DNA of 64,000 nucleotides from Bacteroidaceae bacterium (GCA_017522915.1 JAFWXX010000044.1:1363-65362); one strand, 5' to 3'; shown: positions 13,441 to 57,979, counted from the first letter of the stretch. The notes: a model not told the origin generated them from the sequence alone. Translations and numbers: made by a program.

Positions 13441-13473
13441 GCCTGTCAACGGTTTGGCATAAACTGCAATCAA

Positions 13474-14337: not shown

Positions 14338-14340
14338 GAT

Positions 14341-14382
14341 AAAATGTGAAGAGGTTGCCCATGGACAACCTCTTCACATTTT
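14341..14382. terminator. bidirectional terminator between convergent transcription units
   Basis: 17-bp stem AAAATGTGAAGAGGTTG/CAACCTCTTCACATTTT with an 8-nt loop, between stop 14337 (+) and stop 14398 (-). Confidence 0.8.
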
Positions 14383-14397
14383 ATCAGGTATTATCAG

Positions 14398-38102: not shown

Positions 38103-38627
38103 ATGAAGAATATCATTTTGACAGCAATGTTTGCAACGGTGCTGCTTGTCTTTGCCGGTTGCAGTGAGGAGAATCCGTTTTCGGGGTATAATGCCCATTT
38201 TGTCTTTGACGGTACCATACACCCATATAATCAGGCACGTAGTTTCGGACAGTATATATGTGTAAGGCGCGGTGCCAACATCGGTGAGTACAGGCTTACC
38301 GACGCAATGGGAAATACAACCGTCGAACGTGTGCCGGAGATTTATCTTCAGCAAGGTGTGTTCCATTACGGGTTGGGCGGCCTTATTATAGGCACTCCGT
38401 CGGCATATGGCGAAGGTGCGTTGATGGTATATGATTGGGCATGCCCTAACTGCGAACTTGAGAAGTACAGAGTGAGCATAGATTATGTAATGGGGTATGC
38501 GACATGCTCAAAATGCGGTGTCAAGTTCGACCTCAACAGCGGCGGAATAGCCATCGAAGGAAAGTCGTCACCGCTTATGCGATACCGTGTAATAGATAAT
38601 GGCTCAACGGTAATTGTGCAAAATTAA
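38103..38627 (+). CDS. hypothetical lipoprotein with CxxC...CxxC zinc-ribbon-like motif
   Basis: Lipobox LVFAGC. CPNC-x17-CSKC near the C-terminus. Confidence 0.6.
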   Translation: MKNIILTAMFATVLLVFAGCSEENPFSGYNAHFVFDGTIHPYNQARSFGQYICVRRGANIGEYRLTDAMGNTTVERVPEIYLQQGVFHYGLGGLIIGTPSAYGEGALMVYDWACPNCELEKYRVSIDYVMGYATCSKCGVKFDLNSGGIAIEGKSSPLMRYRVIDNGSTVIVQN

Positions 38628-38704: not shown

Positions 38705-38790
38705 GCTCGAATGGTGGAATCGGTAGACACGAAGGACTTAAAATCCTTTGGCATTTAAACGCCGTGCGGGTTCAAGTCCCGCTTCGAGTA
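38705..38790 (+). tRNA. tRNA-Leu (anticodon UAA), class II with long variable arm; CCA not encoded
   Basis: Cloverleaf by hand: acceptor GCTCGAA/TTCGAGT (G1-U72), D arm GTGG-AATCGGTAG-ACAC, anticodon arm AAGGA-CTTAAAA-TCCTT, 17-nt variable arm, T arm GCGGG-TTCAAGT-CCCGC. Near-identical architecture to E. coli tRNA-Leu(UAA). Confidence 0.93.
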
Positions 38791-40751: not shown

Positions 40752-40777
40752 CATAGGCTATTAATGCCGATTGTATG

Positions 40778-40826
40778 TTAACCGGAGTTCGATATAACAG
40801 ATTATATTAACCTGAGTTCGATATAA
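40778..40826 (+). repeat. two 20-nt direct repeats TTAACCNGAGTTCGATATAA, period 29 nt
   Basis: Copies at 40778-40797 and 40807-40826 with one mismatch. A partial third copy, ACGGAGTTCG, lies at 40875-40884. Confidence 0.7.
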
Positions 40827-40990: not shown

Positions 40991-41304
40991 CCTTGACAAC
41001 ACCGCCTTTCGCAACCCAAACGGCATAACCTACGGCTATGCTACGTTTGACCTGTTGCTGCAAAACTCGTCGATAACAAAACAAAGGGGTCATTGACTCG
41101 TTTTGCCTTTCGTGCACCGCAAGGCATCACTTTCAGCGATGCTGCCTGCAACGTTCACTGCAAAACTCGTCTATAACAAAACCATGTTTTGTCATTCTAT
41201 ATTTGCACTGTCATTGACTCGTTTTGCTTTTCGTGCACCGCAGGGCATCACTTCCAGCGATGCTGCCTGCGACGTTCACTGCAAAACTTGTCGATAACAA
41301 AACC
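40991..41304 (+). repeat. three tandem 93-nt hairpin-forming units (40991-41083, 41091-41183, 41212-41304)
   Basis: Units 2 and 3 differ at 6 of 93 positions. Unit 1 is diverged but colinear. Each has an apical 5-bp stem with a 9-nt loop AC.T.C.GC and ends TGCAAAACTYGTCNATAACAAAAC. Confidence 0.85.
41198..41205 (+). promoter_or_regulatory. -7 promoter box (TAnnTTTG) immediately upstream of repeat unit 3
   Basis: TATATTTG (the same octamer as the tRNA-Leu promoter) ends 6 nt before the unit 3 start at 41212. Confidence 0.45.
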
Positions 41305-41376
41305 GCGAACAGAGATTTTTCCGGGCAAGCCCTCAACAACACGTCTCCGTTGCTATGCTCTGTATAGTACAGATGT

Positions 41377-41407
41377 AAAAAAAGGACGGTTATGCCGTCC
41401 TTTTTTT
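41377..41407. terminator. bidirectional terminator (A7-stem-loop-T7)
   Basis: AAAAAAAGGACGG-TTATG-CCGTCCTTTTTTT, 19 nt beyond the stop of the minus-strand operon (41426). Confidence 0.85.
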
Positions 41408-41425
41408 ACATATATATAACCCTTG

Positions 41426-42589
41426 TTACTCTTCTTGGTCAAGGTAGTAGAGGTCGCCCGACATAATCTGCTTGACGCGCATAATCACCTCGTTGTTCTC
41501 TAAGTTGAGCGATACTGCACGTCCTTCCGGCTCAATGAGAACAATTTTTGGAGTGCTCTCTACCTTGTACAGTTTTGCTGCAGGTGATTCTGCTCCGGTA
41601 GCATCGCATGCGTGTATCCAGCCTTCGAGGTCTGTACCGTTGCTCTTGACTGTCTCTTTCCATGCAGCTGCATTGCTGTCAAGAGCAAAACTTACAATTA
41701 CAAACTGGCCGTTGCTGCTCTTGATGGTTTCGTACAGTTCCTTCATTATAGCAAGCATAGCCGGAGATTTCTCGCAACCGCTTGCCCAGAAGTTAAGCAC
41801 TACATATTTGCCACGGTAGTCACTCAAGCGTTTCTTCTCGCCACTGAGCAGTGGCAGTGTAATGTCAGGCACTTCGTTGCCGACCTTCATGCTGTTCGAA
41901 AGCACTTTGTTGCGCAATGACAGGTAGTAGGGGTGGTTTCCCAATGACACAGCTATTGCTTTTGTCATCTGGTCGGCATAGCCTTCGCTGAGATTCGGCA
42001 GCAATGTATGTTCAATCTCAAACGGTGTCATCGGAGAAGAGTTATGGTTTATAAGGAACCTTATGGCCTCAGCCTCTGTCTTAATGGCCTCTCTTGCCTT
42101 AATGCTCTTTACTGTACTCTTGCCTTCACTGCTCTGCAGCCAATCGCTTCCATTAGCTGCTGCAAGAGCTTCTGTCTGTGTATCGACTCTTTTTTGCCCG
42201 GCATCTCTGATTGCCATGTATTCTGCGTATGCATCATTGGTCGGGGTGCCTGTAACAGTGCTCTCTTCCGGTGCTTCGGCAGAGACTGTGTTTACATTGA
42301 CCTCGCCTGGTTCTACAAACAGCCTGATGCCTTTTTCGCCTATTCCTTTTATGGTGTATAGCATCACCGGCTCACCGGCTGCAATTTCATGTGTGAAAAG
42401 ATACTTTCCCTTTTTCACTTTCGATACGGCAACTTCTCTTTCCTGGCCGAACTCATCGGCGATTACAAGGCTGACTTTCTTTATTTTCTTGCCGTCTGCA
42501 ATGTTGCCGTTTATTATGCATGTTCCTTGTGCACCGGCCGAAATGCAGGATGCAACAACTATTATTGCCGAAAATAATCTCTTTAGCAT
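41426..42589 (-). CDS. TlpA/AhpC-TSA-like thioredoxin-fold protein with DUF4369-like N-terminal domain; active site degenerate (CEKS)
   Basis: Start chosen at MLKRLFSAIIVVASCISAGAQG (ATG 42589). The Trx motif reads NFWASGCEKSP where paralogs have FWASWC(G/A)PC. The cis-Pro region STPKIVLIEPEG is retained. Confidence 0.75.
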   Translation of the reverse strand: MLKRLFSAIIVVASCISAGAQGTCIINGNIADGKKIKKVSLVIADEFGQEREVAVSKVKKGKYLFTHEIAAGEPVMLYTIKGIGEKGIRLFVEPGEVNVNTVSAEAPEESTVTGTPTNDAYAEYMAIRDAGQKRVDTQTEALAAANGSDWLQSSEGKSTVKSIKAREAIKTEAEAIRFLINHNSSPMTPFEIEHTLLPNLSEGYADQMTKAIAVSLGNHPYYLSLRNKVLSNSMKVGNEVPDITLPLLSGEKKRLSDYRGKYVVLNFWASGCEKSPAMLAIMKELYETIKSSNGQFVIVSFALDSNAAAWKETVKSNGTDLEGWIHACDATGAESPAAKLYKVESTPKIVLIEPEGRAVSLNLENNEVIMRVKQIMSGDLYYLDQEE

Positions 42590-42602
42590 AACTATAATCT
42601 TT

Positions 42603-43754
42603 TTATTTGTCTGCACCGTCAACGATGCCTTTCAGTTTCTTTACCATCTCTTCGCCTCTGAGGCCGAACTCTAAGACATTACCGTCCGGGTCTATGAGTG
42701 CAGTGAACGGCACGCCTTTTACGTTGAAGAACTTTATTCCCTCACTGTTCCACCCCTTAAGCGTTGATATGTGTATCCAGTTCTTGTGTGTAAGCTGGTT
42801 CTTTGCAATGCAGTTTACCCAGTCGTCCATCTCGCTGTCTATCGAATAGCTCAGGACAACAAGGTTTTCGCAGTTTTCGGAATACGCAAGTGCTTCTTTA
42901 AGGAACGGTATCTCGCGGCGGCATGGTGCGCACCAGCTTGCCCAGAAGTCTATGAATACATACTTGCCCTTGAAATCGGAAAGTGAAAGCTCTTTGCCGT
43001 CGGGGGTGCGTCCGCTTATGTCAGGAGCAGGAGAGCCCTCCTTGAGGTTGGCCGAACGAATTTCGTTGACCAGCTCCTTGTACATTGTCTCTCTATGCAG
43101 TTCCTGCGGTATGGCATCAAGGAACTCCTGGATTTTGTCGGTGGTGAACATAGGGAGCATGGCATATTTAATTATATACAGCACTACCGGTGAGTCGATA
43201 TGCCGGTATATGAAGTCCATGATAGCTACCTTGAAGTGCATGTTGTTCACATAGAAAGTAGGTGATGTGTACTTCATCTCTGCTTCGGGCTTGCCCTTGA
43301 TTTCATCGGGAATGGTCTCGTATGCAGCTTTCATGCGTGCCTTGCTCTCATTGATGCATCTGTTGTTCAGGTCGATATATGCCTGATTGATATCATTGCA
43401 TGGAGTACCGCCAGTTTTGGCTGCTACCGGGTATGCTGCATCGAACGGGCCGACAACAATCTCGCCTTCTTCAAGGAATAACTGTATAGCTCCGTTGTCG
43501 AAGCCTGTTATGTTGCACAGCGTAAGCTCTTCTGGGGCAGTGCCCTCGAAAGTAAATTTGCCTTCCTTGACAGGTGAAGTTGCTATCACGGTCTGTACAC
43601 CGTCAACAAGCAACTCAAGCCTGACTTCCTTGACAGAATCATTGCTGTAACATAGCTTGTTGCTGACCATTTCGCCCTTTATGACGAATTTTCTCTCTTG
43701 TGCAGTGCCGAGTGCTGCAAAGGTCAGCAATGTCAATACTAATAACTTTCTCAT
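42603..43754 (-). CDS. TlpA-like thiol-disulfide oxidoreductase with DUF4369-like N-terminal domain
   Basis: 383 aa. Signal peptide. DFWASWCAPCRREIP active site. Confidence 0.8.
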   Translation of the reverse strand: MRKLLVLTLLTFAALGTAQERKFVIKGEMVSNKLCYSNDSVKEVRLELLVDGVQTVIATSPVKEGKFTFEGTAPEELTLCNITGFDNGAIQLFLEEGEIVVGPFDAAYPVAAKTGGTPCNDINQAYIDLNNRCINESKARMKAAYETIPDEIKGKPEAEMKYTSPTFYVNNMHFKVAIMDFIYRHIDSPVVLYIIKYAMLPMFTTDKIQEFLDAIPQELHRETMYKELVNEIRSANLKEGSPAPDISGRTPDGKELSLSDFKGKYVFIDFWASWCAPCRREIPFLKEALAYSENCENLVVLSYSIDSEMDDWVNCIAKNQLTHKNWIHISTLKGWNSEGIKFFNVKGVPFTALIDPDGNVLEFGLRGEEMVKKLKGIVDGADK

Positions 43755-43765
43755 TGTGTATGGTT

Positions 43766-44866
43766 TTAATTTAGGTTCTCCTGCAGGAATGCTCTCAACT
43801 GTTCACCGCGAAGCCCTGTTGCTATTATCCTGTTGTTTTCGTTGAGTATGAAAAGCGACGGTACTCCGCTTACGTTGTAGAGGCGTATTGTCTCGCATTC
43901 CCATCCTTTTAGTGAAGATACGTTTATCCATCCCAGTCCATCTTTCTCAATGGCCTTTTCCCAAGCACCTTTGCTGGTATCGAGCGAGACGCCGATAATC
44001 TCCAGGCCCTTTTCGTGAAACTCCTCATAGAGCTTCTTGAGTGCAGGGTTGTTTAAGCGGCACGGTCCGCACCAGCTTGCCCAGAAATCAATAATCTTAA
44101 TCTTGCCCTTTACACTGCTCATCGTTACCTGGTTGCCGTTGATGTCGGGGAGTGTAAAGTCCGGTGCATCGGCACCTTGGTCTGTCTTCTCCATGCGTTC
44201 TATACGCTCCTTTATTATGCGTCCGAACTGAGAGGTCTTGGCACCGTCTCCCAAAGCGGCATACATGCTACGTGTCTCCTTGAGACCTGCGTCGCGCATT
44301 AAGATGTTGGAATATACGGTATATGCCGTTATAATGTTGTCGTTGTTGCCGAGGAAACTGTCGGTAATTTCACGCAACTTTTCCTGCTCGCGCTGCAGGG
44401 TATCGTTCACAAGGCTTGCACTGCGCAGTTTCTTTGCTTTGCGCATCGCATCGTAGCGTTCCTGCAGTCCCGATATGACAGCACGTATCGAGTCGGAAAC
44501 TCTCATGTGGGCTGTGTAGCTGTCATTGAGGCTGCCGCCTCTGATGTAGTAGCTCTCATCCTCGCTGAGGCATGCACTGTATGTCACTCCGGGCTCTGCA
44601 AACAGCGTGAATCCGCCTGAGAAACCTTCTACTACAAGCTGTGCGACAACAGGCTCCTCTGTATTAGCCTTTAACTGGAACTTGCCTTTCTTGAAGTCGC
44701 AGAATCCGAGTGTGTCGCTCTTCTCTTCCGATGAGCGTGCAAGCAAGTAGAGACGGCCTTTTTCTATACCCTCAATCTTTCCTTTTATGCTTATTTCACC
44801 TCTTTGGGCTACTGATGAGATTGCACTGCATATTATCAGCAGTGCCAGTAAAGCGGTTTTCTTCAT
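43766..44866 (-). CDS. TlpA-like thiol-disulfide oxidoreductase with DUF4369-like N-terminal domain
   Basis: Start chosen at MKKTALLALLIICSAISSVAQ (ATG 44866, 4 nt after the upstream stop). DFWASWCGPCRLNNP active site. Confidence 0.8.
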   Translation of the reverse strand: MKKTALLALLIICSAISSVAQRGEISIKGKIEGIEKGRLYLLARSSEEKSDTLGFCDFKKGKFQLKANTEEPVVAQLVVEGFSGGFTLFAEPGVTYSACLSEDESYYIRGGSLNDSYTAHMRVSDSIRAVISGLQERYDAMRKAKKLRSASLVNDTLQREQEKLREITDSFLGNNDNIITAYTVYSNILMRDAGLKETRSMYAALGDGAKTSQFGRIIKERIERMEKTDQGADAPDFTLPDINGNQVTMSSVKGKIKIIDFWASWCGPCRLNNPALKKLYEEFHEKGLEIIGVSLDTSKGAWEKAIEKDGLGWINVSSLKGWECETIRLYNVSGVPSLFILNENNRIIATGLRGEQLRAFLQENLN

Positions 44867-44870
44867 GTTT

Positions 44871-46595
44871 TTAATAAATTGCTTTGTAGATGTAGTCATA
44901 TACGAACTGTACATCCTTGATTTCGCCCCATCTGTTGCCTTCGTTGTCCTTATCGTAGAACAGCGGTGTATAGCTGTTGTCAACATCGGCTGCCGTGTTG
45001 AACTTGATTTCGGCTATAGCACCGTTTTCCCCGTCGAACATTATGATGTTCAGGTAGCGGCCGAGATCGTCGCTGAACATAGAGTTCTCCTCTGTGCGGA
45101 ATTTGATTCTTGTGATGTCATAACCCTCTGGTGCCTCATAGACTGTAAACCTGTCTCCGTTCGACACGTTGTAACGGTAAACTTTGTTCCCCTCGGCAAA
45201 GAAGAGGTTGGTTGTCGTAAACCAGGAGTTGTACGTTATGGTTGACATATCGGTCGGAGTTAGGCCGGCAAGCTTCTTTACATTATTGATCTTGTATGCA
45301 GCCTGTTTCTCCTCCTCCTCATTGGCACCGCTTCTCCTTTTGGCCTTGCTGCCGTCTCCGATATCCTGCATGACAAGCTCATAACGATAGTAGTCACCGG
45401 CAGCATCATCCCTGAATATGAAATAAGCGTTTTGTTGGTCATAGTTGTCACGGTAGTTTATATATCCCATGACAGCGGTCATTCCCTCCGGTGATTTCTG
45501 CAGGCCTTCCAGCTTTACATTTGCATCAAGCAACGGGCTCTTTGAGATGTAGCTGTCCTTGATAGAGTTTGCTTCGTCTATTGCAAATCCTGGGTCCTGC
45601 TTTGCAGCATACAGGAAACGGTTGTTTTTGGCATCCCACATGAGGAAACGGTTGTGCGTGATTGTCGCAGCTGTAATCTCATAATCGCTCTGGTGCAATA
45701 GGTCGGGGTTGTTCTCGCAGGCAAGCCCTGGCTTGTACAGAGCGTGGATATAGTTTCCGATGTAGGCCTCGCCGTTTTCCGAAAGAACAACCTTGTACTG
45801 TGTATAGTTTGACGGGTCACCGGTCTGTATGGTCCTTTTGTATGAGAAGTCCTCGCTCCCGCCTTTGAATATTTGCGGCGAAGTGTACTTTACTGTCATT
45901 CCATGAGGATTGTACGCTCTTGTCTCTCCGTTACTGCCGAAAATTGTCAGTGTACTGGTAACTCCTATATTTGACAAATCCTCAGGAATGTTCATGAATG
46001 TGGTATATCCTAATCCTGTTGCATTACCGTAGTAGTTGTTGTCTCTTGTTACATTCTTGACATCGGTGTATATCTTGGTCTCGTTTCCAATGACTTCGAT
46101 GTTGCCGAGCTTGCGATTGCCTTCATTGCCGTGAATGACAAATAGGCTGTTCTTGAACACCGGGCGTGTATTTATCTTGAACGCTGAGTAATGCGACAGC
46201 TCTGTGCTCTTGTCAAATATCTGTAGGAAGATGTTATATGACATGGGTTTCCCGATAGGCAGGTCGAATTCAAGGAATCCTTTGCTATGTAATGTATCCT
46301 TGACGCTCTTGCCTTTCTCATCAGTATATGACCTGCACCAGTAGAATTCAAGGTTGTCAAGATTGTTTGCAAGGGACTGGTCCAGGACAACCTCGATACG
46401 GCGTGTGCAGTTATCCTCTTCCAAGGCCTGCTGCACCTCGATGACATCTCCCTCGGCAGTCATAACAACAGACGGCACGAAAGTCACGGAATTTATCTTG
46501 TTCATTGAATCAAGCGAATAGTCATAGTTGCCTTTGTCTTCGTAGCAACCGGCCAGCACAGTCAGTGTCAGCAGAAGTGATGATATCTTTTTCAT
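44871..46595 (-). CDS. PKD-like family lipoprotein (family name from memory)
   Basis: 574 aa. Lipobox LAGC followed by YEDKGNYDY, the N-terminal signature I associate with this family. Confidence 0.6.
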   Translation of the reverse strand: MKKISSLLLTLTVLAGCYEDKGNYDYSLDSMNKINSVTFVPSVVMTAEGDVIEVQQALEEDNCTRRIEVVLDQSLANNLDNLEFYWCRSYTDEKGKSVKDTLHSKGFLEFDLPIGKPMSYNIFLQIFDKSTELSHYSAFKINTRPVFKNSLFVIHGNEGNRKLGNIEVIGNETKIYTDVKNVTRDNNYYGNATGLGYTTFMNIPEDLSNIGVTSTLTIFGSNGETRAYNPHGMTVKYTSPQIFKGGSEDFSYKRTIQTGDPSNYTQYKVVLSENGEAYIGNYIHALYKPGLACENNPDLLHQSDYEITAATITHNRFLMWDAKNNRFLYAAKQDPGFAIDEANSIKDSYISKSPLLDANVKLEGLQKSPEGMTAVMGYINYRDNYDQQNAYFIFRDDAAGDYYRYELVMQDIGDGSKAKRRSGANEEEEKQAAYKINNVKKLAGLTPTDMSTITYNSWFTTTNLFFAEGNKVYRYNVSNGDRFTVYEAPEGYDITRIKFRTEENSMFSDDLGRYLNIIMFDGENGAIAEIKFNTAADVDNSYTPLFYDKDNEGNRWGEIKDVQFVYDYIYKAIY

Positions 46596-46649
46596 AATAC
46601 TCTCTTTCGATGATTATTCTGTATTCTTTTACATTTCTTTTGCAGTTGC

Positions 46650-47999
46650 TCAGTCAAGTTCAACATCCGGTATGTCATATCTTCTTGTTATCGGACGCTT
46701 GTCGTTGGCTGCCTTTATGATGCGGTAGCACTCCTTAAGACGCTCCTCGCCGGCCAGCTGCTTCTTGCCGAACGGAGATTCGTCCCAACGGTAGGTGTTG
46801 TTCTCCTTGTCATATATGAACGGAAGGATTGATGCTGCAATGAAGTTTTCGGCACCGTCATCCTTCATCATTGTCTTAAGCATGAACTGGTACTTGTCGT
46901 CCTTGTATTCTCCGAAGTATTTCTTTGCTATTTCGGCTGTTCCTAGTCCGTTGGGGTCTTCCCACCAGAACGGGATTCTCATTCTGTAGTTGCTGTTGTT
47001 CTTCATCTCAACCCAGAACATATTCTTGTACTCCGAAATTGGACAGCCGTTCATTGCGTAGTTGTAATACTCGTTCAGCATGTCATATACATCGTTCTTG
47101 TGGAAATTGTCAGCCTCATCTTGCATCTTCTTTATAGCATCATCGCTTGAATATAGCGATGCGATATCCATGGTGTTGGAACCGCCGAGCATAGTTGTAA
47201 AACGGCAGAACTTGTTAGCTCTGAATATTCCCAGATATTGTTCGTACTCACTCCAGAAATAAGGTACTGTGTAAGCGGGACGTTCTGTTTCTGCAAGGAT
47301 AGGCAGGTCAACGGCAATAGGCTCTTCGGGTTCATTGGCAAGCAGTGCATTCACTGCGCTTACGTTTAGAGCCAATATCGAGTCGAATACGTGCATCCCA
47401 AGATTATTGTCATAAAGTTTCTCATAGAAACGGTTATTACCGGTATGGTTGGCAAGGAATATGTGTTTCTCCTTGCTCCACGTCCCAAGGTATGTATCGA
47501 CATGGCTATACCATACTGCCGGTTTACCGTATGACTCTGTCACATACAAGTTGATCTCGCTCTTTCCGTTTATCCCTGTACCGATATCTCCGCTGCCGTC
47601 AAGATAGATACATACGGCATAGGTAGTATCTTCCAGTTCAGGGCGTCTTACCTTGACTTTAATCTCCTTTTCGTATTCATTGTCGGCGAATACGACATGC
47701 TCTATTGTGACATCGGCCGGTGCATATCCTTCAATATTCTTTGTCTTGACTGACAATGCACGCCCTTCCTCCATAAGGTATCCGAGCAACTTGACCTTCA
47801 ATGCAACGGATACGGTATCGGGGTTGCCGACAATGTAGTCGCTGAAGTTCAGTCTCTTGTTGAAGTCGGCTGCATATTCATAGTCGAAATATGCTCCGTT
47901 AGCACCCTCGTCAAACAAATCGGGCTCACTTTCATCGCAGGCTGTGAATGCCACTGTAATGCATAACAGCCAAACTATATAGTCAATACTCTTTTTCAT
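46650..47999 (-). CDS. DUF4843-like lipoprotein with extended C-terminal domain (family from memory and locus context)
   Basis: Start chosen at MKKSIDYIVWLLCITVAFTAC (ATG 47999). Lipobox FTAC. Sits between SusD and the PKD-like gene, as in the recurrent Bacteroidales architecture. Confidence 0.5.
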   Translation of the reverse strand: MKKSIDYIVWLLCITVAFTACDESEPDLFDEGANGAYFDYEYAADFNKRLNFSDYIVGNPDTVSVALKVKLLGYLMEEGRALSVKTKNIEGYAPADVTIEHVVFADNEYEKEIKVKVRRPELEDTTYAVCIYLDGSGDIGTGINGKSEINLYVTESYGKPAVWYSHVDTYLGTWSKEKHIFLANHTGNNRFYEKLYDNNLGMHVFDSILALNVSAVNALLANEPEEPIAVDLPILAETERPAYTVPYFWSEYEQYLGIFRANKFCRFTTMLGGSNTMDIASLYSSDDAIKKMQDEADNFHKNDVYDMLNEYYNYAMNGCPISEYKNMFWVEMKNNSNYRMRIPFWWEDPNGLGTAEIAKKYFGEYKDDKYQFMLKTMMKDDGAENFIAASILPFIYDKENNTYRWDESPFGKKQLAGEERLKECYRIIKAANDKRPITRRYDIPDVELD

Positions 48000-48057
48000 A
48001 TAATTATCTATCATGTTTGAATGCTTCTGTTGTTGGTGTTGTATTTCTATAGCGGTA

Positions 48058-49494
48058 TTACTCAAGGTTCCCTTCCTCGTCCTCTGTCCATCCGTACTCA
48101 ACCTCTGCGTCGGGCAACGGGAAAATGAAATTCTCCTCCATGAGCGTTACGGTCGGGGAGTGTGCCAATGTGCCGGTAATGCCATGGGTCTTAAGGAACC
48201 AGAAGTACTGTCCTTCGCCGTAAAACTCCTTGCGGTACTCCTTGTTCAGTGCCGAAATGCATTGCTCTTCTGTATCGCATGTAACATCCTTTGCTTTGGA
48301 AATACCTCTCTTGTTGCGTACACTGTTGACAAACATTGCAGCCTCTTCGCTGTACTCCGAACCTTCACATGCAATATAATACATTTCGGGAAGTCGTATA
48401 AGAGGTATTATTTCGTTGTCGTTGTCAATGTACTTAAGTGAAATAGCCTGTTGCAGTTCATTGTTTCTGTAGAATGCTGTGCCTTTTGCACGCATGTCCT
48501 CGCTCTCCGAACCGATGCTTTCAAATATCGAGTTAAGTGTCGATATGCTAAGGTAGTACTTGGTGCCTATCTTTTCACCGATAGCAAAATAGTCGGACAG
48601 GTTGTCCTTCATCTCATGCATGTTCAGTCCGCAGATAACCTCCTTCGATAGTATCGGGTCGTTGTCGTTGCCGTTTTCAAGAGCAAGACCGCAATTGTCA
48701 ATTACCATTCGGGCATGTATGGCTGCACTGTCTTTCATACCTGCATAGTTGTAAACACGTGCCAGCATAGCGTTTATTGCATGGTAGTTGAAGCGGAAGT
48801 GCCGTCCTTCAATACGGTTGCTGAGGTCAAGGTCTTTCTCATAACTCATATACTCCCTGGCCTCCTTAAGGTCCTTTATGATTCTTGTGACAATCTCCTT
48901 TGCCGGCAGCAGAGGTTGCTTTGAGTGGTCTGCTGCAACGCGATAGGGAATACATTTCATCTCTTTGGCTTCGTCGCTTCCGGCATAGTTCATTGGGCCC
49001 CAACCACGCAACAGGTCAAAGTGCAGGAATGCGCGTAGTGCAAGTGCTTCACCGCGTATCATGCTGCGTGTGTCGGTGTTGGCAATTACTGATTCACCGT
49101 TCAGGTCCCACCATTTGAGCAGGTTGTTCACGTTTGCAATAGAGTGGTACTGCGAACCCCATATGTTTGCAAGCACACCCTTTGTGTTGTATGCACCGCT
49201 TGTCTCAGTATCGTATATATATACGCTGTTGCGGTCAGGAGTGCCGTCGGGTATCTTGTCATACATCTGTGCAAGCTGTTCCATAAGACCAAAGCTAAGA
49301 TTTTTGCCATACGTGTTTTCTTCGGTCATGGTTATGTATATTCCGGCAAGTGCACTCATGAAACCGTTCTCCGTCGTGAAGAGCTCTTCTGCCGGCACAT
49401 CTGTATTTGGAGCTACGTCCAGCCAGTCGGAACAAGAAGAGAGAGAGAACAGGCCTGTCAGGCCGGCAATAAGTATGTTTATGGTCTTTTTCAT
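48058..49494 (-). CDS. RagB/SusD-family outer-membrane lipoprotein
   Basis: 478 aa. Lipobox LSSCSDWLDV and the typical SusD N-terminus (P..DVPAEELFTTENG...ALAGIY). Directly downstream of SusC. Confidence 0.88.
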   Translation of the reverse strand: MKKTINILIAGLTGLFSLSSCSDWLDVAPNTDVPAEELFTTENGFMSALAGIYITMTEENTYGKNLSFGLMEQLAQMYDKIPDGTPDRNSVYIYDTETSGAYNTKGVLANIWGSQYHSIANVNNLLKWWDLNGESVIANTDTRSMIRGEALALRAFLHFDLLRGWGPMNYAGSDEAKEMKCIPYRVAADHSKQPLLPAKEIVTRIIKDLKEAREYMSYEKDLDLSNRIEGRHFRFNYHAINAMLARVYNYAGMKDSAAIHARMVIDNCGLALENGNDNDPILSKEVICGLNMHEMKDNLSDYFAIGEKIGTKYYLSISTLNSIFESIGSESEDMRAKGTAFYRNNELQQAISLKYIDNDNEIIPLIRLPEMYYIACEGSEYSEEAAMFVNSVRNKRGISKAKDVTCDTEEQCISALNKEYRKEFYGEGQYFWFLKTHGITGTLAHSPTVTLMEENFIFPLPDAEVEYGWTEDEEGNLE

Positions 49495-49521
49495 GTTTCT
49501 GTTATCTTTATATGGTATTTG

Positions 49522-52500
49522 TTATCTGAACATAATTGACAATGAAAGCGTGTATGAGCGTGCAAACGGATAGTCAAGGCCTCGTTCCATCTTTACAGGT
49601 GAGATGCGGGCTATGTCGTTTGTGGTGAAGTTCAATGCAACCACATCTACGTTTGCTCTGCGCAGGAACTTGAATTTTTCGCCTGTAAGCCTATAGCCGA
49701 CATTCAAGGTGGCGAATCTAATCTCGTTGTCATCCATGATAAAGCGTGTGCTTGCAGGAGTGTTTGCACCAGTGGGGCTGAAACCAACGAAGCGTGTCAC
49801 ATCGCCAGGCTTTTCCCAACGTCCCTGTCCTGCGCGCTCGTCAAGATTGTAAGCTACATTCTGGTTCTCAATCTTGTCAACAAGTGTCTGGTTATACAGG
49901 ACTCCGCCATACTTGTAGGTGAAGCCGAGAGAGCATGAGAAGTCCTTCCAGTTTATGCTGGTAGAGAGAGTTCCGCTTATCTTCGGGTTTGTATCGCCTA
50001 CTGGAACTTTGTCATTGGCACTCCAGACGAATGTCTTCGTGCCGTCACGTTTCAGGTAAACCTCTTTGCCGGTAACCGGGTCAACTCCCAGGGAGCGCAC
50101 CACATAGAGTGTTGTTGTCGATTCGCCCTCGCGGTATTGCGGCAGTGGGGCGTTGGCCGATTTCATCTGCTCTTCGTTGACTTTCTTCAAGTAATCGGAC
50201 AACTTGCGTATCTTGTTCTTGTTATGGTTCGCATTGACATTGACAGTCCAGAAGAACTGTTTGCGCAAGTTCTGTATGGCAATTACGTTCAATGAAAGGT
50301 CAAAGCCTCTGTTCTGCAGCTCTCCTGCATTCATGACCATTGTCGGGAAACCGGTAGAGGGAGCGAGATCGTAGCTTGTCAACAACTCCTTAGTGATGTT
50401 GTTGTAGTAGTTGAACGTTAGGTTCACACGATTTTTCCAGAATCCTAAGTCAACCGACAGACTGGTGTTGTGTGTCTCTGCCCAGCCCAGATCTGTATTG
50501 TTAAGTCCGGCAAGAAGAGCACCGAGGACCCCGAATGATTTGTAAGGACGCATGGTGCTGGAGAAACTGTAGTACTCAATGGCATCCGACGGGCTGAAGT
50601 TCTGTTCGCCGGTGACACCGTAGCTTGCACGGAACACAAGGTTTGACAGATAGCCCTTTAGCCATTTCTCATTGTGTGCATTCCAGCGTCCGCCCACTGA
50701 CCAGAACGGCACGAAGTCATGCTTTGCATATCTTGAAGAAGCCTCGCCGCTGATGTTGAAATCGACAGAGTAGCGGTTGTCGTAGCTGTATGAGAACTGT
50801 CCTATCAATCCTATTGAGCGTGAAATGTTCTCAGTACCGATGTTGCTCATGTTTGTCTCCATCTTGTTGCCGAAAATGAAGTCGTCCATGTGCGCATCGG
50901 GGTATCCTGTAGCCGAAAGGTTCACGTAATCGTTCCTGTCCTCGCTTATGGTCCAGTTGGCAAATACACTGAACAGGTGCTTCTTCAGCACAAGGTTATA
51001 GTTTATACCAAAGTTGTTCGACCATGAAGACATCTCACCGTCGCTCTTGAAGTAGCTTCCCTTGCGTGTAATGTCATCCTCAAGCTCAAAACTGGTATGG
51101 TCGGCCGGGAGGAACTTGTCTGTTCCGGCCATTCCTCTTGAATATGAGAACTGGTCAGTAATGCGCAGGTTCTTCAGGAGCATGTATTCAAGACTGAGAC
51201 TGGTAGTTATGTTCAGGCTGTTTGTCATGTCCTTTATTCCTACTGTGGCATCGTAAAGCGGGTTGGTGATTATTGTGCTCTGTCCGCTTACGGTATTATT
51301 GTCGAGAACCTTTATCTGCTTGCCATAACTATCCTCAGGTATATAATAAGGGTTAAGTCTTGTATATTGTGAGAATGAGCCGTAAGGGGAGTTCTGGCTC
51401 TCCGACTCCGACAGGCTTACATTCGCACGCATAGTGAACTTCTCCTTCATATATGTCATGTTGAAGTTTACGCCCTTTGTCTGGTTCTCCGACTCCTTCA
51501 TGACACCGGGCTGCATTGCCGCATTGAGGTCGAGACTGTAACGGAACACCTCAGTACCGCCGGCGATGCTTACTGAATGACGGTGCTGGAATGCCGTACG
51601 CAGAGGCTTTGAGAGCCAATATGTATCAACGCCGCCCAGAACATTACGCAAGTACTTGTTGTATAGGTTCATGTGGCTCGCGTTGTTGGGGTTGTACAGG
51701 CCGGCACGCCATTCCGTGTCGAGCTTTGTGGCTGCATCCATCATGTTGTAGTCGGTGAGGTCGGGTGTCTGTACCGTCATTGTTCCGTTGTATGAAACAG
51801 ACAGTGCACCGTCGGGAGCAACCTTTGTCTCTACTACAACTACGCCATTTGCAGCACGTGAGCCATATACCGAAGTTGCCGCAGCATCTTTCAGTATGGT
51901 AATGCTTTCGACACGTTCCGGGTCAAGGTCAAGGATTCGGCTCATAGGAACTATGAAGCCGTCAAGCACGAACAGCGGAGTGTTCGGACGGCTTGATACG
52001 TTGTCGAGCATCAGGTCCATGCTGTTCATGGACTTTGACCCCAATGACTGGTCTCCGCGAATCTGGAAGTCTGGCTCTGCGTTAGGGTCGGAACCGGTCC
52101 TGTTGTTCTCAATGACCTTGAAACTGGGGTCGAAGAACTGAAGGCTCTTCAGAATGTTCGTAGGGTTCATCTTTCTCAAGTCATCACCCTTTACCTCAAC
52201 ATAGTTTCCCGTAAAGCTGTTCTTGCTGCGGCGGCTGATACCGGTGATGACAACATCGTCAAGCTCTATGCTCGGTTTCAGCTCTATGACAAGGTTATGT
52301 TCGTTCTTTACAATCTGTTTTGAAACCGTTTCGTATCCCACGAAAGAGACACTGATAGACTCCTTCTTGTTAAGGCGTAGGCTGAACTTGCCGTCAATAT
52401 CGGTGATGCATCCTCTGGCTCCGTTGCTCTTGCCTGTTCCGTCTGTGATTAGCACCGTCGCTCCCACCAGCGGCTCTTTGTTGTCCTTGGCAAGAATCTG

Positions 52501-52890
52501 TCCCGATACGTTATATTCACCTTTGTCATCCTCGTGCTGTTTGTCGGGCCCTACGATTATCTGGTTGTTGCTCTCGTAGCTTATCACTACATCCTGGTCG
52601 CCTATAAGGTCGCCAAGGACCTTGTCAAGAGGCTTGTTCTTGACAGCAAGGCTTGTAGGCTTGTTTATGTTCCATAGCGATACGTCCTGCAATGTTATTT
52701 TCGCATTTGCAGCTTCTGCAACCATTTCCAGCACTTTGCCAAGAGGCTTGTTGCTTACTCTCAAGGTTACGGGTTTCTCTTTCCAATCGGCTGCTGCCTG
52801 TGCCTGCACACCTGTTATGCTGCATGCGAGCATGACGGCAACAATGGAAATTCTGCAGAAAAACCCTAATTCAGAAATAGCATTTCTCAT
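49522..52890 (-). CDS. SusC/RagA-family TonB-dependent outer-membrane transporter with N-terminal STN-type signalling extension
   Basis: 1122 aa. STN-like segment VTLRVSNKPLGKVLEMV...KNKPLDKVLGDLIGDQDVVISYE. CarboxypepD_reg-like GQILAKDNKEPLVGATVLI. Plug (DGFIV, VESITILKDAAATSVYGSRAANGVVVV). C-terminal barrel ending in F. Confidence 0.9.
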   Translation of the reverse strand: MRNAISELGFFCRISIVAVMLACSITGVQAQAAADWKEKPVTLRVSNKPLGKVLEMVAEAANAKITLQDVSLWNINKPTSLAVKNKPLDKVLGDLIGDQDVVISYESNNQIIVGPDKQHEDDKGEYNVSGQILAKDNKEPLVGATVLITDGTGKSNGARGCITDIDGKFSLRLNKKESISVSFVGYETVSKQIVKNEHNLVIELKPSIELDDVVITGISRRSKNSFTGNYVEVKGDDLRKMNPTNILKSLQFFDPSFKVIENNRTGSDPNAEPDFQIRGDQSLGSKSMNSMDLMLDNVSSRPNTPLFVLDGFIVPMSRILDLDPERVESITILKDAAATSVYGSRAANGVVVVETKVAPDGALSVSYNGTMTVQTPDLTDYNMMDAATKLDTEWRAGLYNPNNASHMNLYNKYLRNVLGGVDTYWLSKPLRTAFQHRHSVSIAGGTEVFRYSLDLNAAMQPGVMKESENQTKGVNFNMTYMKEKFTMRANVSLSESESQNSPYGSFSQYTRLNPYYIPEDSYGKQIKVLDNNTVSGQSTIITNPLYDATVGIKDMTNSLNITTSLSLEYMLLKNLRITDQFSYSRGMAGTDKFLPADHTSFELEDDITRKGSYFKSDGEMSSWSNNFGINYNLVLKKHLFSVFANWTISEDRNDYVNLSATGYPDAHMDDFIFGNKMETNMSNIGTENISRSIGLIGQFSYSYDNRYSVDFNISGEASSRYAKHDFVPFWSVGGRWNAHNEKWLKGYLSNLVFRASYGVTGEQNFSPSDAIEYYSFSSTMRPYKSFGVLGALLAGLNNTDLGWAETHNTSLSVDLGFWKNRVNLTFNYYNNITKELLTSYDLAPSTGFPTMVMNAGELQNRGFDLSLNVIAIQNLRKQFFWTVNVNANHNKNKIRKLSDYLKKVNEEQMKSANAPLPQYREGESTTTLYVVRSLGVDPVTGKEVYLKRDGTKTFVWSANDKVPVGDTNPKISGTLSTSINWKDFSCSLGFTYKYGGVLYNQTLVDKIENQNVAYNLDERAGQGRWEKPGDVTRFVGFSPTGANTPASTRFIMDDNEIRFATLNVGYRLTGEKFKFLRRANVDVVALNFTTNDIARISPVKMERGLDYPFARSYTLSLSIMFR

Positions 52891-52918
52891 AAGATTATTC
52901 AGTTAAATGTTTTTGCAT

Positions 52919-53887
52919 TTATTGTAGAAGCATGTCTATAATGCTCTTGTACGAAGCATTGCTGTTGTATTTCTCAAGATAGTCCTTGTATAGGACATCG
53001 GCTCTTTCAATCTCCTTGCCGTTCATGATGAAATTGCGAAGCAAGGTATAAAGCAGGAAGTCTCTCTGTTCGCCGCTGTAGAACGATGCGAACTCCTTGT
53101 ACATCTCTTCCATAACCTTAGGCATGCTGTATGTTTCGCCTTTCTCCCTTGCAGCCTTCTCGTTCATGTAAAAGCAGTATCGCATAAGAAGGCTTGCATA
53201 TTCGGGGCAGCTTAGCGACTCGGCGTCGTTTCTTGTAGTGTATCCCTCCGTGATGTTCCAATAGTCGCCTATTTCCTGGCTTGCAACGGCAAGCCCTCTT
53301 GTGCTTTCGTACATTACAGGGTACTCTATGAAAGACATATATACATCGTAGTCAACCATAGCCTTGACGTAGTTCTTTGCCTCGTCGCTTGCCTGGCTGT
53401 TCCCGATAAGGGCGTTTGCCTTTTCGAGCAGGATACGTGAATCGTCGATACGGCTCTTAGGCTTTATGTCGAGCGCGATGCAACCGAGAAGCTGCCCCTT
53501 GTATCGCATGCTCCTCTTTATATTTTCAATGCCCTTGAACAGGCGGTTGTTGTTTACTGCACGTTCCGAACCGCTGTATTCTACCTTTACGTTCTTTCCG
53601 TCGTAGTTGATGTCAACGTGCAGGCTGTCTCCGGGCTGGAGTACAACCTTGACTCGTCCGTTTATGGTCATGTACACAAGATTGTCGCAGTCGAAGCTGT
53701 AGATGTGCTCTTCACCAGGGTTTGTGTGGAACTCCTGTGCTATAAGCGGAGTCTGTACGCAGTCGAAATAGACCATATCTCTCTGGTAGCCATATATCTG
53801 TGCACTCAGAGTCGTCTTCTGTTGTGATGTTGCAGTACCCAAGAGTGAGATGATGGATATCAGTGCAAATAGCAGTTTCTTTTTCAT
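52919..53887 (-). CDS. secreted hypothetical protein resembling the N-terminal (DUF4369-like beta-sandwich plus helical) part of the TlpA paralogs but lacking a thioredoxin domain
   Basis: 322 aa. Signal peptide. No CxxC. Not FecR-like (no TM or anti-sigma signature). 28 nt upstream of SusC. Confidence 0.5.
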   Translation of the reverse strand: MKKKLLFALISIISLLGTATSQQKTTLSAQIYGYQRDMVYFDCVQTPLIAQEFHTNPGEEHIYSFDCDNLVYMTINGRVKVVLQPGDSLHVDINYDGKNVKVEYSGSERAVNNNRLFKGIENIKRSMRYKGQLLGCIALDIKPKSRIDDSRILLEKANALIGNSQASDEAKNYVKAMVDYDVYMSFIEYPVMYESTRGLAVASQEIGDYWNITEGYTTRNDAESLSCPEYASLLMRYCFYMNEKAAREKGETYSMPKVMEEMYKEFASFYSGEQRDFLLYTLLRNFIMNGKEIERADVLYKDYLEKYNSNASYKSIIDMLLQ

Positions 53888-54112
53888 AGTTGTATAATGA
53901 TTTTATATAAAACGTCTCAAAAATGCGAAATTTACCTTAAACAAAGCGAAATTATTGCAAAAGCATATAAAATCAAATTCTATGCCGGTGAAATTATGAA
54001 AATATATGTTAAAAAGGGTTTTTTCGCATTAGCGTGTGCCGGAAGCCGGATTTTTTATACTCCTGAGTCTCTAAAAACTACGATAATTTTACGCTGTTTC
54101 ATAAAATATGGC

Positions 54113-54120
54113 TACATTTG
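54113..54120 (+). promoter_or_regulatory. -7 promoter box (TAnnTTTG) for hut operon
   Basis: TACATTTG about 80 nt upstream of ATG 54201. Confidence 0.45.
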
Positions 54121-54125
54121 TAAGG

Positions 54126-54180
54126 AAGCTGCGTGGCTATCTTGTTGCAGGCAGTGCCGGCCTTGCAGCTTTTCTATTCG
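54126..54180 (+). promoter_or_regulatory. GC-rich leader hairpin followed by a T-run (possible attenuator or 5' stabiliser) in hut leader
   Basis: AAGCTGC (54126-54132) pairs with GCAGCTT (54165-54171). Inner GGC/GCC and GGCA-G-TGCC pairings. Followed by TTTTCTATT. Confidence 0.35.
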
Positions 54181-54200
54181 TATAGTCTAAAAACAAAAAT

Positions 54201-55907
54201 ATGCAGAAGAGAATCATCGAGTGCGTTCCCAATTTCTCTGAGGGGCGCGATATGGAGGTCATCAAACAGATAACCAATGCAATAGAGTCCGTAAAAGGCG
54301 TAAAACTGCTGGATGTTGACCCAGGTGAAGCGACAAACCGCACTGTAATAACGTTCGTAGGTGAGCCGGAGGCTGTTGCCGATGCGGCTGTTGCATCAAT
54401 CAAGCGTGCTACGGAGCTTATCGATATGCGATTGCATAAAGGAGCGCATCCCCGCATGGGTGCATGCGACGTCTGTCCGCTGATACCGGTTTCAGGCATT
54501 ACAATGGATGAGTGTGCTGAGCTTGCACGTGCCTTGGCAAAGCGTATAGCTGACGAGCTTGCAGTGCCGACATATTGCTACGAGGCAGCGGCGTTCAAGC
54601 CCGAACGCCGTAATCTTGCAGTGTGCCGTGAGGGTGAATATGAGGCCCTTCCCGAAAAGATGGCAAACGAGGATAAGCGTCCCGACTTCGGAGCACGTGC
54701 CTACGACGAAGGCATTGCCCGTACCGGAGCTACTGCCGTCGGCGCACGTGATTTTCTTGTTGCTGTAAACTATAACCTCAACACGACATCTACAAGACGT
54801 GCCAATGCCATTGCTTTCGATGTTCGTGAAAAAGGCCGTCCGAAGCGCGAGGGTAATCCCATTACCGGCAAGATTATAAAGGATGAGAACGGAGAGCCGG
54901 TAATGATACCCGGTACACTCAAGGCGTGCAAGGCTATAGGCTGGTTCATAGAGGAGTATGGCATAGCTCAGGTCTCAATGAACATGACGAACCTCTCCGT
55001 TACTCCGTTGCATGTAGCTTTCGACGAGGTGTGCCGTGCTGCCGATGCGCGTGGCGTGCGCGTTACAGGAACAGAGATTGTAGGCCTTGTCCCGAAGAAG
55101 ACGCTTGTGGATGCCGGACGTCATTTCCTTCTTAAGCAGCACCGTTCGACGGGCCTTCCCGAAAGGGAGCTTGTGCGCATAGCGATAGAGAGCATGGGAC
55201 TTTCGAACCTCAAGGAGTTCAAGCCCGAAGAGAAGGTCGTGGAATATATCCTTGAGGCCGAGGAGCAGAAGAGCGTTAAGAAACTTGTAGATATGACATG
55301 TGCTGCATTTGCCGAGGAGACAGCGAGCGAATCGCCGGCTCCGGGCGGAGGCTCTATTTCGGCATACATGGGTGCTCTTGCCGCAGCTCTCGGCACAATG
55401 GTTGCCAATCTCTCTTCGCACAAGGCTGGTTGGGACGACCGTTGGGAATTCTTCTCATGCTGGGCCGAAAAGGGCATGGCTGTAATGAACGAGCTCCTTG
55501 CCCTTGTCGATGAGGATACCGCCGCGTTCAACAGAATCATGGACGTGTTCGGCATGCCGAAGGGCACAGCCGAGGAGAAGGCTGCACGTGCGGCAGCCAT
55601 GGAGGTGGCTACTCTTTATGCTACGGAAGTGCCGCTACGCACGATGAAGGCTGCGTACAAGGCGTTTGAGGTTGTACGTGCAATGGCCGTAGAGGGCAAT
55701 CCGAATTCGGTATCCGATGCCGGTGTGGGCGCATTGGCTGCACGTTCGGCAGTGATGGGTGCATGCCTTAATGTAAGGATAAATGCGGCCGGTCTCAAGG
55801 ACAGGGCTGCTGCCGAAAGGCTTGTGAACGAGGCTATGGAGATACAGGCTCTTGCACAGCAGGCCGAAAAGGAGATTCTTGCAATCGTTGACAGCAAGAT
55901 TGACTGA
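54201..55907 (+). CDS. ftcD: bifunctional glutamate formimidoyltransferase / formimidoyltetrahydrofolate cyclodeaminase
   Basis: 568 aa. N-terminal IIECVPNFSEGRD motif. C-terminal cyclodeaminase-type SESPAPGGGSISAYMGALAAALGTMVANLS. Confidence 0.9.
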   Translation: MQKRIIECVPNFSEGRDMEVIKQITNAIESVKGVKLLDVDPGEATNRTVITFVGEPEAVADAAVASIKRATELIDMRLHKGAHPRMGACDVCPLIPVSGITMDECAELARALAKRIADELAVPTYCYEAAAFKPERRNLAVCREGEYEALPEKMANEDKRPDFGARAYDEGIARTGATAVGARDFLVAVNYNLNTTSTRRANAIAFDVREKGRPKREGNPITGKIIKDENGEPVMIPGTLKACKAIGWFIEEYGIAQVSMNMTNLSVTPLHVAFDEVCRAADARGVRVTGTEIVGLVPKKTLVDAGRHFLLKQHRSTGLPERELVRIAIESMGLSNLKEFKPEEKVVEYILEAEEQKSVKKLVDMTCAAFAEETASESPAPGGGSISAYMGALAAALGTMVANLSSHKAGWDDRWEFFSCWAEKGMAVMNELLALVDEDTAAFNRIMDVFGMPKGTAEEKAARAAAMEVATLYATEVPLRTMKAAYKAFEVVRAMAVEGNPNSVSDAGVGALAARSAVMGACLNVRINAAGLKDRAAAERLVNEAMEIQALAQQAEKEILAIVDSKID

Positions 55908-55928
55908 AACAGACAAAACTATAATATA

Positions 55929-57944: not shown

Positions 57945-57979
57945 GTAACTGTCCGAACAAAATAAAATACAAAGCAACT

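Follow-up and report, generated by a model that had tools for sequence, protein, structure and literature searches.

A 64,000-nt stretch of DNA from a Bacteroidaceae bacterium (GCA_017522915.1, JAFWXX010000044.1:1363-65362; hereafter the window) carries, at positions 41426-53887, an operon of eight genes which combines a SusCD importer, i.e., a SusC-type TonB-dependent transporter and its SusD partner, with a dedicated predicted periplasmic thiol-disulfide module. Our preferred, tentative reading is that this locus is a SusCD-type importer of peptides or glycopeptides and not a glycan system, and that two thioredoxin-like proteins of the operon, TrxA and TrxB, reduce the disulfide bonds of the cargo in the periplasm. 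We place this reading somewhat short of an even chance; both the type of cargo and its reduction are what we infer.

The operon and its proteins

All eight genes are located on the minus strand, and every open reading frame (ORF) is present with an ATG start. The intergenic gaps, when re-measured, were 28, 27, 58, 54, 4, 11, and 13 nt, identical to those given in an earlier reading made from the DNA alone (hereafter the sequence-only reading). Profile searches also bore out that reading for the SusC/SusD pair and the two lipoproteins encoded behind it.

Namely, both members of the SusC/SusD pair passed their family profiles. SusC (49522-52890, 1122 aa), a SusC/RagA-type TonB-dependent transporter, was matched by TIGR04056 (E 9e-170; 567 bits against a cut-off of 368), the TIGR04057 signature (58.6 against 46.2), the plug family PF07715, and PF13715 (CarbopepD_reg_2). 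Its domains are arranged in the order STN-like N-terminal domain, CarboxypepD_reg-like domain, plug, and barrel. The STN match (PF07660, residues 76-115, E 3.4e-4) has 20.8 bits and lies below the cut-off of 28.4; STN scores are likewise weak or faint in FecR-linked relatives with a SusC of the same length. The closest solved structure was that of the SusC homolog 8aa4 (E 1e-55), which we take to be part of a glycan utilisome, followed by RagA (6sli, E 1.5e-39). The SusD-family lipoprotein (48058-49494, 478 aa), encoded 27 nt behind SusC, has the lipobox LSSC and was matched above cut-off by PF14322 (E 9e-18, 65.6 bits) and PF07980 (E 4e-6, 27.2 bits). Its matches to solved SusD structures were weak, and its scores against the NanU and SusD exception models were far below the cut-offs.

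The lipoprotein encoded by g4 (46650-47999, 449 aa), read earlier as DUF4843-like, passes PF16132 with 64.5 bits against a cut-off of 34.5. The match is limited to residues 56-186, and the C-terminal half belongs to no Pfam or NCBIfam family. A C-terminal extension of about 200 aa is specific to the clade of the window, with relatives ranging from 233 to 429 aa. The product of g5 (44871-46595, 574 aa) passes PKD_2 (PF16407; 54.2 bits against a cut-off of 39.2), as expected of the PKD-like lipoprotein named in the sequence-only reading. Here the match covers residues 17-180, and no family was detected in the C-terminal part by profile search. The AlphaFold2 (AF2) model of g5 is all-beta with a mean predicted local distance difference test (pLDDT) score of 66 and, like that of g1, rests on a shallow alignment; as modeled, the protein consists of an immunoglobulin (Ig)-like N-terminal domain and a C-terminal beta-propeller. 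The best Foldseek match of the model was 4r5o (BT1487 beta-propeller, E 3e-9), followed by many further propellers. These generic beta-propellers indicated no substrate and were dismissed as a substrate clue. Neither g4 nor g5 had a sequence homolog among all PDB chains in single-sequence and profile searches. The lipobox FTAC of g4 is followed by the acidic stretch DESEPD and the lipobox LAGC of g5 by YEDKGNYDY; surface exposure of both is predicted because acidic residues stand directly after the lipobox cysteine. SusD, g4, and g5 are thus putative surface lipoproteins.

The last three genes encode the paralogs TrxA (43766-44866, 366 aa), TrxB (42603-43754, 383 aa), and TrxC (41426-42589, 387 aa), which share an architecture of DUF4369, a helical linker, and a TlpA/ResA-like thioredoxin domain. 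Both DUF4369 (PF14289) and an AhpC-TSA/Redoxin/Thioredoxin_8 domain were recognized in each of them by Pfam and NCBIfam, in line with the three tandem thioredoxin-like proteins described earlier. Scores against equivalog models were far below the cut-offs, namely 85, 66, and 51 bits for the ResA-subfamily model (cut-off 170) and 61 and 62 bits for the TlpA model (cut-off 230), so that these proteins are assigned to the superfamily only. The thioredoxin domains were closest to the Bacteroides thiol-disulfide oxidoreductases 2lja and 3fkf, both structural-genomics entries, to ResA of Bacillus subtilis (1st9), and to TlpA of Bradyrhizobium (1jfu), with a further match to pneumococcal Etrx. No solved structure matched the N-terminal two-thirds of the paralogs.

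The active sites CGPC, CAPC, and CEKS of the sequence-only reading were found as WCGPC in TrxA, WCAPC in TrxB, and GCEKS in TrxC. CGPC is present in all aligned TrxA orthologs, and CAPC or CGPC in all aligned TrxB orthologs. The third motif is correct for the window protein but is not a conserved site, since orthologs of TrxC have CEKS, CSKS, CAKS, DAKS, or NDRS. TrxC, the fastest-evolving of the three paralogs, is degenerate and probably not a CxxC-type (dithiol) oxidoreductase. The CGPC and CAPC motifs retained in the two other TlpA-like proteins point to reductase chemistry. In the signal peptides of TrxA, TrxB, TrxC, g1, and SusC, a Gln residue occupies the likely cleavage site or closely follows it. 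Signal peptides of this signal peptidase I type suggest a location in the periplasm (or outer membrane), and the Trx paralogs are therefore predicted to be periplasmic rather than surface-acting.

The first gene of the operon, g1 (52919-53887), encodes a putatively secreted protein of 322 aa with no match in Pfam or NCBIfam. Its earlier description as a DUF4369-like protein devoid of a thioredoxin domain appears reasonable. In hhalign comparisons with the paralogs, a narrow alignment gave a weak probability of 14.6%, while a family-wide profile aligned residues 1-109 of g1 with their DUF4369 region at 91.4% probability (E 9e-7). The UniRef name of g1 homologs from Hoylesella enoeca and Pseudoprevotella muciniphila is 'DUF4369 domain-containing protein', and in a distant relative of 477 aa the helical part is fused to a Thioredoxin_8 domain. 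The family is rare: among 1.84 billion representative proteins searched exhaustively with HMMER, there were 69 relatives, about 35 of which are full length (317-350 aa), none of these with a thioredoxin domain. Family-wide conservation extends to a PGD motif and several aromatic residues but to no cysteine. The AF2 model of g1 (pLDDT 68.6) comprises an eight-strand beta domain (residues 25-106) and helices (108-321), and Foldseek found no match to it in PDB with E below 0.02. The protein looks like an adaptor.

Related loci and their accessory genes

This genome is far from the only one with the gene set, in agreement with what the sequence-only reading said of Bacteroidales annotations: it was found in 40 close loci, in a number of distant loci, and among at least 80 metagenomic loci with PKD_2. 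The close loci, with g4 proteins 45-85% identical to that of the window, were obtained by scanning species-representative genomes. All of them belong to Bacteroidaceae metagenome-assembled genomes (MAGs), mostly labeled as coming from the colon, cecum, or rectum of ruminants (sheep, goat, buffalo, deer, yak, and cattle). Of these 40 loci, 26 cover the entire operon, and each of the 26 has the full eight-gene order; contig ends cut most of the remaining ones, and three have no Trx genes. At the junction of the Trx loss, one of these three (L023) carries a transposase-like fragment, and the two others (L016 and L028) carry the same replacement ORF. Orthologs are 80-94% identical for SusC, 65-98% for g1, 65-94% for TrxA and TrxB, and 45-85% for g4 and g5; those of TrxC are, outside the closest genome (L001; 95%), 45-60% identical, compared with 65-80% for TrxA and TrxB. 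The operon appears to move as a unit starting at g1, because the upstream neighbors vary between species. Word-index homolog searches with g4, g1, and g5 returned close orthologs only.

The distant loci are contigs of distant g1 relatives, in which identity to the window proteins is 24-31% for g1 and 42-46% for SusC. Their fuller gene order is extracytoplasmic function (ECF) sigma factor, FecR, TlpA, g1, SusC (with STN), SusD, DUF4843, PKD_2, and TlpA. A TlpA gene stands directly upstream of g1 in all seven distant loci with upstream sequence (L043, L045-L050), and also in three further loci (L051-L053). Judged by identities of 30-41% to the downstream TlpA of three distant loci (L043, L046, and L050), TrxA is the ortholog of that protein. 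TrxB is 26-29% identical, in near-full-length alignments, to the upstream TlpA group, to which TrxB and TrxC are slightly nearer.

For the metagenomic census, a PKD_2 alignment was used, and two sequence patterns served as seeds. It yielded at least 80 loci with 22-91% identity to g5, several of them from the same species and many on incomplete contigs. The loci were annotated with hidden Markov models made in-house from the locus proteins, and Pfam was applied to representative accessory ORFs only. Loci with at least 1.3 kb of sequence past PKD_2 (64 loci) were regarded as informative downstream, and those with at least 8.5 kb ahead of it (37 loci) as informative upstream. A TlpA-like gene starts within 400 nt downstream of PKD_2 in 54 of the 64 informative loci and is found within 5 kb in 59 of them. 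Upstream of SusC, g1 is present in 32 and FecR in 14 of the 37 informative loci. Grouping at 60% or higher PKD_2 identity resulted in 18 lineages, 14 of them with an adjacent TlpA gene. In nearly all lineages checked, each locus has two or more TlpA-like genes with WCGPC or WCAPC. The core of the module is deeply conserved and comprises SusC, SusD, the DUF4843 and PKD_2/propeller lipoproteins, two or more TlpA-like proteins with CxxC, and, as a rule, g1. Since dozens of species have this gene order, chance is a far from sufficient explanation for it.

Some loci depart from this pattern in detail. TlpA genes two and three are replaced in one human-gut lineage (L068-L073, L078, L089, and L091) by a gene for a 681-aa fusion protein, located at approximately 13000-15060 in each locus, in which DUF4369 is followed by two thioredoxin domains with WCAPC and GCPTC. 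On the long contigs L094 and L109, the locus is split into many short ORFs (SusC in four to five pieces, PKD_2 in one to three), which indicates either pseudogenization or frameshift-rich assemblies. Cultured carriers of the locus type include Butyricimonas, Hoylesella enoeca, and Pseudoprevotella muciniphila. The latter is presumably a mucin degrader, and upstream in its locus a 2165-aa protein is encoded which has no Pfam family above threshold.

The sequence-only reading had stressed the absence of glycan enzymes and peptidases. Indeed, no glycoside hydrolase or peptidase is encoded by the eight genes, and CAZymes were found neither in the window, flanks of the operon included, nor in the 40 close loci. 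More distant relatives, however, possess operonic peptidases of four unrelated families (S8, S9, DUF4953 Met-zincin, and TldD/PmbA). The gene for peptidase S8 overlaps the PKD_2 stop codon in two loci (L106 and L126), where the enzyme bears a sorting domain of the type IX secretion system (T9SS) and PorV comes next; it follows PKD_2 in three others, with PorV behind it in L051 and L052 and alone in L129. The Met-zincin gene is located 35-82 nt after PKD_2 (L132 and L133). In L075, L076, L086, and L090, the last TlpA gene is followed at a distance of 14-17 nt by a gene for a 1107-aa protein of the TldD/PmbA type. Peptidase S9 overlaps the TlpA gene by 4 nt in L043, and a peptidase C1-like gene is present 2 kb downstream in L088 and L095. 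Peptidases occur in 5 of the 18 census lineages. The only CAZyme among the relatives is a GH29 alpha-L-fucosidase, encoded 96 nt after TlpA in two related lineages; 16 of the 18 lineages have none. The other scanned neighbors are unrelated transporters and housekeeping genes. The occurrence of four peptidase families versus a single glycosidase family is the strongest pointer to a protein-derived cargo. The leaning of the sequence-only reading toward a proteinaceous or peptide ligand is thereby supported, as a leaning.

That reading had also reported no regulator gene. This is true of the window, since neither a sigma factor nor a FecR homolog was found there or in the 40 closest loci, but it does not extend to the distant relatives, which possess an ECF sigma/FecR pair. 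In relatives of this type, the upstream TlpA and g1 genes are located exactly between FecR and SusC.

Proposed function and alternative explanations

According to our preferred reading, oligopeptides, or glycopeptides cut from disulfide-rich proteins, would be captured at the cell surface by SusD, g4 with its DUF4843 domain, and g5 with its Ig-like and beta-propeller domains, and would be transferred to the periplasm by SusC in a TonB-dependent manner. There, TrxA (CGPC) and TrxB (CAPC) would reduce the disulfide bonds of the cargo, presumably being recharged by a CcdA/DsbD-type membrane protein encoded elsewhere, and this reduction would let peptidases complete the degradation. As non-catalytic paralogs of the same architecture, g1 and TrxC would probably be binding or adaptor proteins. 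The proteases and the ECF sigma/anti-sigma pair, which belong to the locus in related lineages, would be encoded elsewhere in this genome. The logic would resemble that of glycan polysaccharide utilization loci (PULs), with the T9SS-secreted S8 peptidase as the surface 'endo' enzyme and the S9 and TldD-type peptidases as periplasmic finishers.

A number of observations weigh against this scheme. We infer that the TlpA-like proteins act on the cargo; envelope or signaling proteins may be their targets instead. One paralog per locus can lose its cysteines, and in Pseudoprevotella muciniphila (CP033459.1, 2466507-2487475) the gene 10 nt after PKD_2 (L134, 18824-20969) encodes a protein with 18 Sel1 repeats and no TlpA. 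In three of the close relatives (L016, L023, and L028), all three Trx genes are lost and g1-SusCD-g4-g5 are kept, which implies that the reductases are dispensable for the transporter, at least when non-adjacent. No peptidase is present in the window operon or the 40 closest loci, and the GH29 gene in two lineages makes a glycan or glycopeptide cargo possible. Finally, none of the window ORFs that were scanned (those outside approximately 24.7-35.2 kb, apart from several short ones) was recognized as an electron donor of the CcdA/DsbD type.

A bolder form of the proposal is that TrxA and TrxB represent the first periplasmic disulfide reductases which are dedicated to a substrate and whose genes are coupled to those of a TonB-dependent transporter, and that the system serves for feeding on disulfide-rich host or plant proteins that resist proteases. 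We consider this rather unlikely. Candidate foods would be the cysteine domains of mucins, defensins, protease inhibitors, and seed storage proteins, and g1 together with the cysteine-less paralog would act as adaptors holding the cargo. To our knowledge, gut Bacteroidales do not possess a DsbA/DsbB oxidative folding system.

Among the alternatives, the best surviving one, to which we give a low probability of roughly one in five, is that the TlpA-like proteins and g1 serve the machine itself, either by cysteine upkeep of the transporter, lipoproteins, and proteases or in signaling between SusC and the anti-sigma factor. Known members of the TlpA family do target specific endogenous proteins: ResA and CcmG act on apocytochrome c, TlpA on Sco/CoxB, and Etrx on MsrAB. 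The position of the upstream TlpA and g1 genes between FecR and SusC would fit this reading, as would the STN-like domain retained, below threshold, in the window SusC and the adaptor-like appearance of g1. In addition, g1, g4, g5, and SusD of the window have 3-6 cysteines each; the cysteines of g1, however, are not conserved family-wide, and SusC has only two. Moreover, the transporter genes are retained in the three species that lost the Trx genes, and the recruitment of several unrelated peptidase families is left unexplained.

It is still less probable that the locus is an ordinary one for glycans, including those of glycoproteins, with its enzymes encoded elsewhere and with TlpA-like proteins as frequent Bacteroidales neighbors of general envelope-redox function. 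The fucosidase gene of two related lineages and the higher score of 8aa4, our presumed glycan-utilisome SusC, relative to RagA are in favor of it. The weak similarity of SusD to the sialic-acid binder NanU points the same way, yet the scores against the NanU and SusD exception models are far under the cut-offs. In Bacteroides thetaiotaomicron, host-glycan PULs are typically controlled by ECF sigma/anti-sigma pairs (PMC13176161). An ordinary glycan locus is, on the other hand, hard to reconcile with the lack of CAZymes in the window, in the 40 close loci, and in 16 of the 18 lineages, 5 of the 18 having peptidases, and the adjacency of TlpA in 54 of 64 loci is far above the level of a scattered housekeeping family. 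A small redox-sensitive or thiol-reactive cargo handled by the TlpA-like proteins, such as a metal (e.g., copper), a selenium or sulfur compound, or a cofactor in disulfide form, is very unlikely: it would require no enzymes, as in the enzyme-free window locus, TlpA of Bradyrhizobium prepares copper-binding sites, and propeller lipoproteins of Bacteroides such as BtuG cap cofactor transporters, BT1487 being the best match of g5, but SusC/SusD pairs are known as carriers of oligomers, several related loci encode peptidases, and no metal-binding or cofactor-related domain was detected in the eight proteins by Pfam and NCBIfam.

Many SusCD pairs of gut Bacteroidales have no known substrate, and the locus type described here is among the recurrent ones. 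In one Bacteroides fragilis strain, 12 of 59 susCD loci are classified as 'function unknown' (PMC11467351). The census provides this locus type with a testable assignment, i.e., uptake of a protein-derived cargo with a redox step. If true, this would extend the logic of utilization loci from glycans to disulfide-rich proteins, would explain the abundance of DUF4369-TlpA paralogs in Bacteroidales, and would offer gut bacteria a route for degrading mucin backbones, antimicrobial peptides, and dietary protease inhibitors.

Genomic surroundings and comparison with known systems

The bidirectional terminator reported at the end of the operon was recovered as an inverted repeat spanning 41368-41416. 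This hairpin has arms of 22 nt (41368-41389 and 41395-41416) that are 91% complementary, a loop of 5 nt, an A-run on one side, and a T-run on the other; it was not among the results of a consensus terminator scan. Just past it, at 41058-41304, there is a direct repeat of 95 nt in two copies, 94% identical and 121 nt apart, as well as three copies of the 25-nt unit CTGCAAAACTCGTCGATAACAAAAC. An additional pair of 24-nt repeats is located at 40774-40826. Further downstream, the convergent gene at 39058-40677 (+) encodes a secreted protein of 539 aa, in which Pfam recognizes a Big_5 Ig-like domain and whose C-terminus resembles a T9SS sorting domain. A homolog of it adjoins the operon, in either orientation, in many of the 40 related genomes, and the protein could be functionally linked to the operon.

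On the upstream side, the operon shares the intergenic region 53888-54200, read directly on the minus strand, with a divergent histidine-utilization (hut) operon (54201-60692, +). This region presumably holds the predicted operon promoter. The hut operon encodes formiminotransferase-cyclodeaminase (FTCD), urocanase, histidine ammonia-lyase, and an amidohydrolase, the latter probably an imidazolonepropionase. A functional link between the two operons was considered and rejected: they are adjacent in only 6 of the 40 close loci, the upstream context is otherwise variable, and the neighborhood was treated as coincidental. An Rfam search of the window revealed no riboswitch or other element except two tRNAs.

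Elsewhere in the window, genes of the ExbB family (7485-8234, +) and with a TonB_C domain (8682-9482, +) are candidate energizers of SusC, with no specific link seen. A bacterial serpin gene (15748-16968, −; PF00079, E 1e-96) lies beside genes for an alkaline phosphatase and an M50 site-2 protease. The gene at 38103-38627 (+), adjoining a tRNA gene at 38705-38790, encodes a small lipoprotein of 174 aa without a Pfam family, which has two CxxC pairs (CPNC and CSKC) resembling a zinc ribbon.

The locus type is common in annotations yet uncharacterized. The sequence-only reading knew of no functional characterization, and we likewise found no paper on the gene set; searches for DUF4843 and DUF4369, and for TlpA, thiol-disulfide, or PKD-like proteins together with SusD, returned nothing relevant, with the coverage of subscription journals being sparse and absence therefore no proof. 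SusCD-type complexes that import peptides or small proteins are known, however, RagAB and BT2261-64 being cited as such in PMC7782687. The RagAB system of Porphyromonas gingivalis, whose cargo is peptides, is likewise a pedal-bin SusC/SusD pair without CAZymes. The window SusC matches RagA, yet RagA is not its best solved match, and no RagB-like similarity was detected in the window SusD. The RagAB locus also differs from that of the window in lacking g1, TlpA-like genes, and lipoproteins of the DUF4843 and PKD_2 families.

BT2261-BT2264 of B. thetaiotaomicron, a four-component complex, also combines SusCD with two extra surface lipoproteins and no glycan enzymes. A peptide ligand was observed in its structure, as cited in PMC7782687. 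BT2264 is a weak match of the window SusC (E 1.7e-22). A relationship of g4 and g5 to BT2261 and BT2262 was considered, but single-sequence and profile searches of all PDB chains, including 5fq6-8, gave nothing. We know of no report of thioredoxin genes in the BT2261-64 locus.

The ButCD system of B. fragilis imports the ubiquitin homolog BfUbb, which contains a functionally important disulfide (PMC11467351). It is also a SusCD locus without glycan enzymes, and a Zn-metalloprotease gene adjoins it (PMC11467351). The physiological substrate of ButCD is unknown, and its layout is limited to ZnMc-SusC-SusD, with neither the accessory lipoproteins nor the TlpA-like genes of the window locus. The STN domain of SusC transporters controlled by ECF sigma/anti-sigma pairs in trans-envelope signaling may have its counterpart in the STN-like N-terminal domain of the window SusC, whose match is below the Pfam cut-off. 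The sigma/FecR genes that mark such loci stand at the start of the distant relatives and are absent from the window and the 40 closest loci.

As to the thiol-disulfide module, TrxA and TrxB share the WCxPC thioredoxin fold and predicted export with ResA, TlpA, CcmG, and Etrx, while TrxC has no CxxC. What sets the Trx proteins of the window apart from these reductases is an additional DUF4369 beta domain at the N-terminus, a helical linker, and a genetic link to a SusCD transporter instead of cytochrome c, Sco, or Msr genes.

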